Positions 15,983-20,376 of a stretch of DNA of 64,000 nucleotides are shown piece after piece; positions within the stretch are counted from its first letter, which is position 1, and every line of letters starts with the position of its first letter. Position numbers and translations under genes: made by a program. Origin of the DNA: Hyphomonadaceae bacterium. GTDB lineage: Bacteria > Pseudomonadota > Alphaproteobacteria > Caulobacterales > Hyphomonadaceae. Location of the stretch: contig CP121341.1 of NCBI GenBank assembly GCA_043513745.1, forward strand, positions 298,599-362,598, in the 5' to 3' direction. Under the pieces are notes generated by a model. The model had not been told where the DNA came from. It saw only the letters and a program-made list of their open reading frames with translations, and did not search any database.

Positions 15983-16012
15983 AATGTCCGCTTTCGGGTC
16001 ATAGCGGACGTT
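15983..16012. repeat. Palindromic cassette-boundary element E1
   Basis: AATGTCCGCT-TTCGGGTCAT-AGCGGACGTT. Confidence 0.85.
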
Positions 16013-17121: not shown

Positions 17122-17152
17122 GGTGTCCGCTTTCGGCGTGAAAGCCGACGTT
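17122..17152. repeat. Palindromic cassette-boundary element E2
   Basis: GGTGTCCGCTTT-CGGCGTG-AAAGCCGACGTT, with a C:C stem mismatch. Confidence 0.75.
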
Positions 17153-17482: not shown

Positions 17483-17511
17483 AATGTCTGCTCCTGACCC
17501 AAAGCGGACAC
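17483..17511. repeat. Palindromic cassette-boundary element E3
   Basis: AATGTCTGCT-CCTGACCCAA-AGCGGACAC. Confidence 0.85.
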
Positions 17512-17524
17512 TTCTGGCTATGAT

Positions 17525-18142
17525 CTATTGGGCTTTGAGTGGCATCCCATAAAGCGGGCGAACCTCGTCAGGGACTAAGCTCATGTCGATTGTTATGCCT
17601 CGCTCGGCTCCAATGCGTCCGACGATGGCGCCAATCTCGGGGGGTGTTAAATCCCCTGCAGACGCGACCTCCATGGCAACGGCATCAAAAAAGTCATCAA
17701 ACTCTCCCGAAGATGTTCCCACCAGCAAGGTTGCGTCCTCGTCGCCAGCATTCCACAGTGCGTGCGACCCGCCGCGCGGGAGCATGACCAAACCGCCCGG
17801 TGAAATTGTCTTTTGTTGGCCGTCTGCCATAAACGTGACCGTCCCTTCTCGGACATAGAAGAACTCGTCCTCATGCGTATGCGTATGCGGCGGTGCACCA
17901 GCGCTGTTTGCTGGCACTTTGATCTCAAAAAGACTTAGACCGGCATCATTGGTCTCAGCACCAACCAACCGCGTCGTCGGATGAAGTGGAAAGTCGATTG
18001 GTTCGCCTTCGCCGACATCAATTAGAAGTGCTGGTTTTGCTTCAGTCGTGCTTGTTGTATTCTCGGCAAAACTAGACGATGTGCATGCCATTAGCGCGAA
18101 TGCTGACATGCCTGCTAGCGCTCCACCCGATAAACTTTTCAT
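17525..18142 (-). CDS. Cupin-domain protein, probable lipoprotein
   Basis: PPHTHTHEDEFFYVREG and PRGGSHALWN cupin motifs; start ATG 18142 with RBS GGGAGG; LMAC lipobox-like. Confidence 0.88.
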   Translation of the reverse strand: MKSLSGGALAGMSAFALMACTSSSFAENTTSTTEAKPALLIDVGEGEPIDFPLHPTTRLVGAETNDAGLSLFEIKVPANSAGAPPHTHTHEDEFFYVREGTVTFMADGQQKTISPGGLVMLPRGGSHALWNAGDEDATLLVGTSSGEFDDFFDAVAMEVASAGDLTPPEIGAIVGRIGAERGITIDMSLVPDEVRPLYGMPLKAQ

Positions 18143-18239
18143 CGCGAATCCTCCCTCTTTCGAAAATACAATGCGGGAGGCCTCTCGGTTCTGCAAGTTT
18201 CGTTCGTTCCGCTAATTTCGGCCAATGTCCGCTTTTGAC

Positions 18240-19465
18240 TGCGGATTCAAATGATCGTCGCAACACTTTAGTTTGATTGGAAACTGGAGTGGAAGTCATG
18301 AAGCAACGTCGACGCATTTATTACTCAGAGTCTCAGAGAGCGGAGATATGGGATCGCTGGAAGCGCGGGGAGACCATGAACGCCATTGGTCGCGTGTTTG
18401 ATCGTGGTCATTCTTCGATCTTTTCGGTTCTAGAGCCAACAGGTGGTATTCGCCCACCTGCACGTAGGCGCTCTGCCGGCGCTTTGTCTTTGTGCGAGCG
18501 CGAAGAAATCTCACGCGGTCTTGTTTCTGGTTTGTCTATGCGAGCGATTGCAAAGTCCCTGGGCCGGACTGCATCCACAATCAGCCGGGAGGTCAAACGC
18601 AATGGCGGACGGCGCGCCTATCGTGCAATCAAGGCGGATAAGCGCGCATGGGAACAAGCATTGCGCCCCAAGCCCTGCAAGCTATCTGGCAGCGCCTTCC
18701 TGCGCAGAGCTGTTTCTGCCAAACTACGCTCTGATTGGTCGCCCCAGCAAATTTCTGGTTGGCTCAAGCGAACCTATCCAGAAGATGAGCATCGCAACGT
18801 GTCGCATGAAACGATCTACAGATCTCTTTTTGTTCAGGCACGCGGTGTTCTGAAGAAGGAACTGCAGGCGTATCTGAGGACGAGACGTGCGGTGCGCCGA
18901 TCAAGACAAACAAGCTTGAAGCGAAATGGTATTGGCCAGATCAAGAACACCATATCTATCAGCCAGCGCCCTGCATCGGTTGAAGATCGCGCTGTGCCCG
19001 GACATAGGGAAGGTGATCTGATTGGCGGTTCAAAGAATAGCTATGTGGCCACATTGGTGGAACGTCATTCGCGCTATGTCATGCTGATTAAAGTGGCCAA
19101 CAAAGACACTCAGGGTGTTGTGACGGCACTCATCAAACACGCCCGTCGCCTGCCGGATGAATTGTACAAATCCCTGACTTGGGACCGCGGGAAGGAAATG
19201 GCGGATCATCAACGCTTTACATTGGCGACAGACATACAAGTTTATTTCTGTGACCCACAAAGCCCTTGGCAACGCGGATCGAACGAAAATACCAATGGTC
19301 TATTGAGGCAGTATCTGCCCAGGGGAACCGACTTGTCCCTCCACAATCAGGCTAAGCTGAATGCCATTGCAAGAAAGCTCAATGAGAGGCCAAGAAAAAC
19401 GCTGGACTATGAGACCCCGGCTGAGCGATTAAATGCGTGTGTTGCAGTGACCAATTGAATCCGCA
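18240..19465 (+). mobile_element. IS30-family insertion sequence, 1226 bp
   Basis: 27-bp terminal IRs TGCGGATTCAAATGATCGTCGCAACAC / TGCGGATTCAATTGGTCACTGCAACAC (22/27 identical); 2-bp AC duplication. Confidence 0.95.
18298..19458 (+). CDS. IS30-family DDE transposase
   Basis: Two HTH regions, SHETIY, EGDL, TWDRGKE and PWQRGSNENTNGLLRQY motifs. Confidence 0.95.
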   Translation: MKQRRRIYYSESQRAEIWDRWKRGETMNAIGRVFDRGHSSIFSVLEPTGGIRPPARRRSAGALSLCEREEISRGLVSGLSMRAIAKSLGRTASTISREVKRNGGRRAYRAIKADKRAWEQALRPKPCKLSGSAFLRRAVSAKLRSDWSPQQISGWLKRTYPEDEHRNVSHETIYRSLFVQARGVLKKELQAYLRTRRAVRRSRQTSLKRNGIGQIKNTISISQRPASVEDRAVPGHREGDLIGGSKNSYVATLVERHSRYVMLIKVANKDTQGVVTALIKHARRLPDELYKSLTWDRGKEMADHQRFTLATDIQVYFCDPQSPWQRGSNENTNGLLRQYLPRGTDLSLHNQAKLNAIARKLNERPRKTLDYETPAERLNACVAVTN

Positions 19466-19518
19466 ACCCAAAGCAGACATACCGAACATCTCTCTCAGCG
19501 CGCCAGATACTGCCCATC

Positions 19519-20271
19519 CTACCCCACCAACGCCGCCAGTTCTCCACACGTCGCGACCAGGCGCTCAATGTCCTGCTCGCGGGAGAGGCGGTGGTCGCCG
19601 TCCTTGATCAGGGAGAAGACCAGCTCCTCGCTCTTCAGCGCTTCAACCAAACGGAACGCGTGCTGCCACGGCACGTCGGGGTCCTGCATGCCCTGGAGGA
19701 TGCGGATGGGACAGGTCAGATCAATCGGTGCATCCAGGAGCGCCCATTTTTTGCCATCCTCAATCAGGTCACGGGTGATCGGGTACGGGTCGCCATAGTC
19801 GGACGGGCGCAGCGTGCGGCCCTGGTCCATGATCTCGGCTTGTTGCTCAGCGCTGAACTCGGGCCATATCAGTTTCTGTGTGAAGTCCGGGGCGGGCGCG
19901 ATCAGCACCATAGCCGCCACCCGGTTCTTCAAGGCGAGGGCGGACAGAAGCGCCATCCAGCCGCCCATGCTGGAGCCGACCAGAACGAGCGCGCCGGAGG
20001 TCAGGCCCTCAATCGCGGCGAGGGCATCCTCGCGCCAGGCTGAGATCGTCCCGTCTTCGAAATCCCCTCCAGAGACGCCGTGCCCTGAATAGTCGAACGC
20101 CAGGAAGCCATGCCCCGCCTGTTGCGCCCAGGTCTCCAGCACGGTGACTTTCGTGCCCGTCATGTCGGACTTGAAACCGGACAGCCAGACAAAGGTCAGC
20201 CCGCTCGACGGGGCGGAATACCGGTACGCCAGGCGGCGCCCTTGCGGTGAAACAAAATCCTTATGCTCCAT
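19519..20271 (-). CDS. Alpha/beta hydrolase (ABHD10-like)
   Basis: GFKSDMTGTK, GSSMGG nucleophile elbow and KDGDHRLS. Confidence 0.9.
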   Translation of the reverse strand: MEHKDFVSPQGRRLAYRYSAPSSGLTFVWLSGFKSDMTGTKVTVLETWAQQAGHGFLAFDYSGHGVSGGDFEDGTISAWREDALAAIEGLTSGALVLVGSSMGGWMALLSALALKNRVAAMVLIAPAPDFTQKLIWPEFSAEQQAEIMDQGRTLRPSDYGDPYPITRDLIEDGKKWALLDAPIDLTCPIRILQGMQDPDVPWQHAFRLVEALKSEELVFSLIKDGDHRLSREQDIERLVATCGELAALVG

Positions 20272-20376
20272 GCGCACGCTCCTTCTCGCCCGGCTTCGCC
20301 CCTTCTACTGCAACTGCTTGCGCAGACTGGCAACTTCTTCGTTTCAATGCGCGGCCAAATCAGTCACACTCAGTGG

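Follow-up and report, generated by a model that had tools for sequence, protein, structure and literature searches.

The 64,000-nt stretch of a Hyphomonadaceae genome analysed here (contig CP121341.1, positions 298,599 to 362,598; hereafter the window) carries on its + strand, at positions 18240-19465, an intact 1226-bp insertion sequence (IS) of the IS30 family with a single open reading frame (ORF) inside. The element is bordered on each side by the dinucleotide AC (18238-18239 and 19466-19467) and splits a short palindrome, E4, that belongs to a repeat family of the source genome. This genome (G000), which was treated as a member of the genus Henriciella, consists of one contig (C1) of 3.40 Mb with 56.7% GC. 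A sequence-only reading of the window had located the IS, its AC duplication and the split hairpin, and its coordinates proved exact. The comparisons reported here make it very probable that this IS has been recently active and that its transposase picks out a single defined target, namely the middle of a ATGTCCGCTTT-N6/7-AAAGCGGACAT palindrome.

The element ends in TGCGGATTCAAATGATCGTCGCAACAC on the left and GTGTTGCAGTGACCAATTGAATCCGCA on the right (TGCGGATTCAATTGGTCACTGCAACAC on the other strand), and the resulting 27-bp terminal inverted repeats agree at 22 of 27 positions. The left repeat spans 18240-18266 (+ strand), and the right repeat (19439-19465, - strand) overlaps the final codons and TGA stop of the transposase gene. 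The inner part of the left repeat, TCAA..GTC..GCAACAC, is kept in all relatives aligned. The transposase gene (18298-19458, + strand) encodes 386 amino acids from an ATG, with an alternative TTG start at 18277 that yields a 393-amino-acid ORF. Numbered on the latter, the protein contains an HTH_38 domain (residues 70-109) and an rve domain (residues 245-330), with an N-terminal helix-turn-helix (HTH) region preceding the catalytic core, and it scores 281 bits against the NCBIfam model NF033563 ('IS30 family transposase', cut-off 80). Its catalytic triad, D240-55-D296-33-E330, is of the DD(33)E type and lies within the D-(54-61)-D-33-E spacing quoted for the family (PMC2516522), and the lengths of the element, of its repeats and of its duplication fall in the IS30 ranges (~1.0-1.25 kb, 20-30 bp and 2-3 bp, respectively). 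The element is a member of the IS30 family and this copy is complete; no tandem or abutted IS copies are present in the G000 assembly.

The two halves of E4 lie at 18224-18239, where the arm ATGTCCGCTTT (18225-18235) is followed by TG and the duplicated AC, and at 19466-19480, where the duplicated AC is followed by CC and the arm AAAGCAGACAT (19470-19480). Deleting the IS and one AC rebuilds AATGTCCGCTTTTGACCCAAAGCAGACAT, whose predicted single-stranded fold has a loop of 6 nt on a stem of 11 bp, interrupted by one C/A mismatch (-5.8 kcal/mol, z = -5.6); perfect family members fold at -14.9 kcal/mol. Rebuilt E4 had been described as nearly identical to E3 (17484-17511; 6-nt spacer TGACCC, 18/22 arm matches), which among the intact members nearby comes nearest to the empty site. 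The two are indeed similar, but they agree at only 24 of 29 positions and the match is missed by a 3-mismatch search. The proposed inactivation of E4 follows only in the trivial sense that its arms now stand 1.2 kb apart. Two further intact members precede E3 in the window: E1 (15984-16011; 6-nt spacer, 20/22 arm matches) and the more degenerate E2 (17123-17151; 7-nt spacer, 19/22).

Scanning G000 for the arms ATGTCCGCTTT and AAAGCGGACAT around a spacer of 5-8 nt, with sites kept at 18/22 arm matches or better, returned 40 intact sites against one in a reversed-genome control; the family as a whole comprises ~42 sites in 3.4 Mb. Its consensus is a 28/29-bp palindrome with 11-bp arms, and the dominant loops are TGACCC (6 nt, 28-bp unit) and CGGCGTC (7 nt, 29-bp unit), as in the uninterrupted copy at C1:1738724 (ATGTCCGCTTT TGACCC AAAGCGGAC). 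Conservation covers this 28-29 bp unit, or 34-35 bp with an AAT/ATT or AAC/GTT extension, and the flanks beyond are not conserved. All ~42 sites lie between ORFs, in convergent (18), tandem (17) and divergent (7) contexts, and are grouped in ~8 islands, the largest of which holds 17 copies over 26 kb. The motif TGTCCGC..GCGGACA proposed from the window alone thus denotes a real repeat family, yet no perfect copy of it occurs in the window, since each local copy has a variant base. The expectation of an abundant and defined target was right as to definition but not as to abundance, for ~42 intergenic sites are far fewer than those of classical repetitive extragenic palindromic (REP) elements, which usually number >100 per genome. 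Lying between genes and mostly after their 3' ends, the palindromes offer the IS gene-sparing landing sites.

Exactly two IS copies, 99.8% identical, are present in G000, and the second (C1:1536354-1537579), flanked by ccaatgtccgcttttgAC on the left and ACccaatgcagacat on the right, is inserted at the identical loop nucleotide of another family member. The two copies share 18 nt of left flank (CCAATGTCCGCTTTTGAC) and 14 of 15 nt of right flank, and the DNA outside the palindromes is unrelated between the two loci. With ~42 sites in 3.4 Mb, the chance of two random insertions both doing so is ~1e-10. Flanks this alike could also descend from a single insertion spread by segmental duplication or gene conversion; the similarity, however, ends at both palindrome edges, as expected of two members of a repeat family, and the case for targeting does not rest on G000 alone but extends to a sister Henriciella genome and to a survey of the clade, and we give this origin hardly any credence.

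The near-identity of the flanks at the two G000 loci, and a repeat search that returned 42-nt arms (18225-18266 and 19439-19480) with 79% complementarity, would also fit a mobile element that runs from 18224 to 19480 with 42-bp inverted repeats, so that the half-palindromes would belong to the element itself. The Henriciella metagenome-assembled genome (MAG) G010 speaks against this. Its IS, 70% identical to that of the window, is present in three 100%-identical copies, each within a different palindrome with a 7-nt spacer, in both orientations relative to the loop and with the duplications CCG, CGC and GAG, and these copies differ at many flank positions. The pairs L031/L032, L058/L065, L060/L071 and L063/L070 of the clade survey likewise differ in their flanks, uninterrupted palindromes with the joined sequence exist (as at C1:1738724), and the direct repeat stands between IS end and arm, which is the place of a target duplication and not of a terminus. 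Three identical copies in differing palindromes rule out that the half-palindromes are part of the element, and the probability left to a longer element is negligible. The sequence-only reading had named insertions into unrelated, non-palindromic DNA as the outcome that would speak against targeting. Neither the second G000 copy nor those of G010 showed it, both G000 copies occupying the same loop position and all three G010 copies lying in loops of family members.

To survey the clade, a profile was built from five transposases, which returned ~600 relatives, among them 80 loci (64-74% protein identity) in named genomes. The hosts surveyed include Roseobacteraceae, Sphingomonadaceae, Bradyrhizobium, Halieaceae, Burkholderiales, Mariprofundaceae, Nitrospinota and Acidobacteriota. 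The ends of the relatives were set by a fixed offset, anchored on the stop codon of the transposase gene and on the conserved motif GCAACAC, and the survey set consisted of 74 unique full copies with both flanks (64-100% protein identity). When their flanks were aligned, as the sequence-only reading had suggested, 56 of the 74 copies reached an arm score of at least 14/22 and 39 reached at least 16/22, whereas 14/22 was never attained in a control set of 72 flanks sampled another 150 nt outwards. The relatives surveyed come from the Alpha-, Beta-, Gamma- and Zetaproteobacteria and the Nitrospinota, and distant hosts also carry intact palindromes that combine the same arms with loops of their own (0 matches for a control pattern).

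The distances from arm to IS end, duplication included, are symmetric: 28 copies have 4 nt on both sides (4/4) and 10 have 5 nt (5/5). An exact 2-bp duplication is present at 27 of 36 4/4 sites and an exact 3-bp duplication at all 12 of the 5/5 sites, and the spacers rebuilt from these distances and duplications measure 6 or 7 nt, as in intact sites. The junctions show that insertion falls in the spacer, in a geometry anchored on the arms, each of which is separated from the IS end by 4 or 5 nt, and that the length of the duplication, as read from these alignments, is the spacer minus 4 (2 bp at 6 nt, 3 bp at 7 nt). It follows that the strand-transfer points lie 2 nt inside each arm whatever the length of the spacer. 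Two 99.6%-identical copies in one MAG, L063 and L070, display both outcomes, a 3-bp duplication at a 7-nt spacer versus a 2-bp duplication at a 6-nt one, so that the length of the duplication is dictated by the spacer of the target and not by the element.

On a maximum-likelihood tree of the transposases, high-scoring targets appear on all major branches and 21 label changes are needed, which argues that targeting is a shared trait and not a derived one. To judge from this tree, palindrome specificity goes back to the ancestor of a broad sub-clade (protein identity of 64% or more) that extends over several proteobacterial classes and beyond. The proposal that the IS is a specialist parasite of the repeat family holds as regards targeting, but the repeat is not specific to Henriciella, its consensus being common to an IS30 sub-clade across phyla. 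A further suggestion, that the IS tips and the palindrome arms share a GCGGA/TCCGC core, is true of the window IS but of few of its palindrome-targeting relatives (5/39 at the left end and 3/39 at the right). The GCGGA core is not needed for targeting, and arm mimicry does not generalise.

Within Henriciella the occurrence of the palindrome is patchy. Strict palindromes number 0-31 per genome and are present in 27 of 37 genomes, the transposase is found in 8 of 41, and at least three strict copies occur in ~16 of 400 Pseudomonadota genomes. The IS-bearing Henriciella genomes are richer in palindromes, all seven having at least six (Mann-Whitney p = 0.006), and a transposase of the window type is the only conserved protein linked to the arms, with no RAYT, Ssn or IntI nearby. 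This linkage leaves room for the view that the palindromes are made by the IS itself, as footprints, solo relics or decoys, in which case the association would say nothing about target choice. The palindromes, however, are far more widespread in the genus than the transposase, and three genomes well supplied with them, G004 (28 palindromes), G006 (13) and G021 (12), are without the IS. Moreover, nothing in the palindromes derives from the IS, no copy of the arms occurs inside the IS, and copy-out-paste-in elements do not excise in transposition and hence leave no footprint (PMC9333248). An origin of the palindromes from the IS is accordingly very unlikely.

Another question is whether the IS recognises structure and not sequence, accepting any hairpin, cruciform or terminator-like stem-loop, of which the repeat would merely be the commonest. 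The target is strongly palindromic, as the folding energy of its perfect members indicates, its loops vary freely among hosts, and hairpin targeting has reportedly been described for IS1630 of the IS30 family (Calcutt et al. 1999). Set against this, Alpha-, Gamma- and Zetaproteobacteria have the arm sequence itself in common and not just its capacity to pair, and in many of the sites hit, pairing is imperfect while the arm consensus is held on each side independently. In addition, each join is fixed 2 nt away from its arm and the duplication measures 2-3 bp, whereas in IS1630 the whole hairpin is duplicated, and the other GC-rich, terminator-like hairpins of G000 were left untouched by both copies. 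With arms conserved across classes, loops variable and many sites imperfectly paired, recognition of a hairpin alone is unlikely.

Selection of the palindrome by its arm sequence, the reading preferred here, suggests a simple mechanism. A transposase dimer would read both arms as double-stranded half-sites, probably through its N-terminal HTH region by analogy with hot-spot targeting in IS30, for which that region is required (Nagy et al. 2004, as cited in PMC1525189). The two active sites would thereby be held at a fixed distance from their arms, 2 nt inside, and integration would proceed from a circular intermediate with abutted ends, as in the pathway of IS30 and IS1655 (PMC9333248). Palindromes on prophage-like DNA may, in addition, help the IS to spread.

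Several observations weigh against this reading or narrow it. No exact orthologous empty site was found for either G000 copy when 40 congeners were searched with the joined flanks. The same search gave many solo palindromes; an intact palindrome follows the orthologue of the right-flank hydrolase gene in G003, and none was found at the position of that orthologue in G029, the closest relative. Both G000 copies occupy 6-nt spacers, a preference that with n = 2 is indistinguishable from chance (~0.15). Among the 4/4 sites, 9 of 36 are without an exact 2-bp duplication, which may be due to the fixed-offset IS ends or to later mutation. Arm matches are weak or absent in 18 of 74 relatives, including a whole Acidobacteriota branch, and target specificity is relaxed or changed in parts of the clade. 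Lastly, it is the conservation of the arms and their fixed spacing that make double-stranded half-sites, as opposed to extruded structures (hairpins or cruciforms), the probable object of recognition.

The Acidobacteriota loci L092, L093, L098 and L108 belong to one well-supported transposase branch whose flanks have no recognisable palindrome arms; either their specificity has changed or the target is missing in their hosts. A second IS30 species in Henriciella (G001, G016, G028 and G029), 67-69% identical to the window IS and with the tips TGTGGTC...ATCGGCA, is consistently flanked by a different repeat at nine loci (L004, L006, L007, L012, L018, L021, L024, L026 and L028), with GAGCGTCCGTTTTAGGG to its left and GGCGTTTTAAGNCGCTC to its right (target GAGCGTCCGTTTTAGGG joined to GGCGTTTTAAG). 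These junctions point to a shifted target specificity within the clade. In G010, a short tyrosine-recombinase-like fragment (G010:C1:274117-274332) is found outside one of the IS copies, at a distance of ~450 bp.

Two genes border the window IS, both on the - strand. A conserved alpha/beta-hydrolase gene (19519-20277) has the IS just downstream, and a cupin gene (17525-18196) has the IS 44-98 bp upstream. The insertion may alter expression of the cupin gene and, if the hydrolase and cupin genes are co-transcribed, would be polar on the cupin cassette.

We compared the palindrome with known classes of repeat. A classical REP/REPIN-RAYT identity is not supported by a RAYT gene in G000: the PF01797 profile found no match there, with positive controls. 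The recognition motif described for Ssn proteins, HGTCWY..YYVSBRH..WNVSBRG..RNCYNB (PMC11893778), fits 0 of 40 palindromes and is not enriched in the genome (25 matches versus 31 in the control). REPs tagged with CGTC carry an unpaired CGTC/TGTC tag, an 8-9 bp stem that starts with A/T and a 4-5 nt loop (PMC3733652), whereas in the palindrome TGTC pairs with GACA in an 11-bp stem around a 6-7 nt loop, and this identity was rejected. The PF01541 (GIY-YIG) profile matched two ORFs in G000, one of 627 amino acids and one of 178 amino acids at 2.05 Mb, neither of them in a palindrome island; the former is consistent with UvrC. An attC identity was discarded because attC sites are imperfect palindromes of 55-140 bp and contain R''/L''/L'/R' boxes and extrahelical bases, compared with 28-29 (34-35) bp for the palindrome. 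The integron integrase model TIGR02249 gave no match over its cut-off in 12 palindrome-rich genomes, and none of the seven tyrosine recombinases of G000 is next to a palindrome array. The strict motif also occurs in 78 viral or proviral contigs of IMG/VR, with GTGCCA/TGGCAC as the commonest loops. Several of these contigs (listed as L168, L173, L185, L188, L205 and L214) have it as doublets or triplets ~45 bp apart, and doublets are also seen in other genomes; those of the viral contigs resemble REP doublets (REPIN/BIME-like).

In both Henriciella and a Halieaceae MAG, the palindromes bound one-gene units. The largest G000 array (C1:2575847-2602007, 17 copies) contains small genes in both orientations, with Imm33, DUF7919, DUF6572 and RDD among their products and many orphan ORFs without a Pfam match. 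Around it lie phage-like ORFs that, read without a family search, presumably encode a terminase (2577575-2578975) and a portal protein (2594680-2596236). The Halieaceae array L142 (G073:C4:224000-238000) has ten palindromes with loops of the ACTCCG and TAGGTC types and one gene per interval, mostly co-oriented, including an aminoglycoside 3-N-acetyltransferase family gene (PF02522, AAC(3)-type) and a metallo-beta-lactamase-fold gene, and an IS of the window-element clade is inserted in one of its palindromes. In G000, a 142-amino-acid orphan gene with its upstream region occurs twice (C1:1680719-1681258 and C1:2591017-2591556) at 88% nucleotide identity. The homology runs exactly from hairpin to hairpin, and in G021 a homologue likewise stops at a hairpin, as if the unit had been copied as a cassette. 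The layout of the palindrome, 11-bp arms around a 6/7-bp core, is that of a recombinase core site. We put forward, as a tentative idea that is possible but not probable, that the palindrome is the boundary or recombination site of a widespread proteobacterial gene-cassette system, free of integron integrase and partly prophage-borne, of which the IS30 sub-clade would be the dedicated parasite, in the manner of IS1111-attC elements on integrons. The array cargo (Imm33, the AAC(3)-type acetyltransferase and the many orphan ORFs) is of a kind typical for cassettes, and the patchy occurrence within Henriciella and the 78 viral contigs with the strict motif agree with the idea. Terminators or REP-like elements carried along with genes gained by horizontal transfer are an equally good account of the hairpins, the cassette recombinase being only hypothetical. 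The target palindrome is a more surprising object than the IS.

These results would add IS30 to the IS families that use extragenic palindromic repeats as landing sites, five of which were listed in 2006, and give the IS30 family a long, sharply defined natural target of 22 conserved bases together with a simple geometric rule. The rule would show how a DDE transposase couples the reading of half-sites to strand transfer, and such strict targeting may be useful for site-directed integration. The conservation of the arms suggests that they are read by a protein conserved across phyla, and the IS can serve as a marker for finding palindromes and cassette-like arrays in other genomes.

Among characterised elements, the closest are IS30 of Escherichia coli and IS1655 of Neisseria meningitidis. 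They belong to the same family, with the domain order HTH, HTH_38, DD(33)E, and share with the window IS the insertion at the axis of a preferred palindromic site. Their hot spots are reported (Olasz 1998; Kiss 2007) to be loose consensus palindromes of 24 bp for IS30 and 19 bp for IS1655 on plasmid or phage DNA. The target of the window IS differs in being a natural genomic repeat with 11-bp conserved arms, common to the clade across phyla. The likeness extends to inverted repeats with a ..GGTCG..GCAACAC motif (compare the ISLxc3/IS1655 repeats, PMC2516522) and to 2-3 bp duplications, but in the window clade the duplication length tracks the length of the spacer. IS30 and IS1655 further combine palindromic hot spots with the targeting of their own ends (PMC9333248), and own-end targeting was not seen for the window clade.

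The 'type 1 association' with REPs described for IS1397, ISKpn1, ISPsy8, ISPa11, ISPpu9, ISPpu10, IS621, ISRm22 and ISRm19 (Tobes & Pareja 2006, PMC1525189) offers a second parallel, in that all copies stand at one position of a short extragenic palindrome and the joined flanks rebuild the repeat; ISRm22, moreover, inserts right at the axis of its palindrome. The REP-targeting families of that survey are IS3, IS110, IS4, IS256 and IS5, and IS1655 has only a loose association of 15-33% (PMC1525189). Unlike type 1 targets, which are species-specific, high-copy REPs, the window palindrome is low-copy (0-31 per genome) with arms conserved across classes, and in IS110-type elements the target is picked by a guide RNA, as opposed to the protein half-site reader that we infer for the window IS. 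Full-text literature searches returned no paper that describes specialisation of an IS30-family element on a REP or another palindromic repeat of the genome, and a search for the arm sequence returned only unrelated papers among the matches inspected.

The IS1111-attC elements and group IIC-attC introns are likewise mobile elements specialised on a hairpin site that separates gene cassettes. They differ from the window clade in transposase family and chemistry, and 12 hairpin-rich genomes of the present set have no integron integrase. The target of the window IS, at 28-35 bp and almost perfectly symmetric, is also shorter than attC sites, which measure ~55 bp and up. Within the IS30 family, the IS1630 and ISMhom-1 type elements of Mollicutes similarly choose stem-loops behind genes. 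IS1630-type elements reportedly (again Calcutt et al. 1999) duplicate the whole inverted repeat of 19-26 bp and accept variable sequences, whereas the window clade has a fixed arm sequence and a duplication of 2-3 bp within the loop. Given that five other IS families have been described as targeting REPs and that IS30 itself prefers palindromic hot spots, the window IS represents a sharpened form of known behaviour and not a new principle. On the junctions compared here, it is a transposon of ordinary size and unusual site specificity, whose strict target is conserved across phyla.

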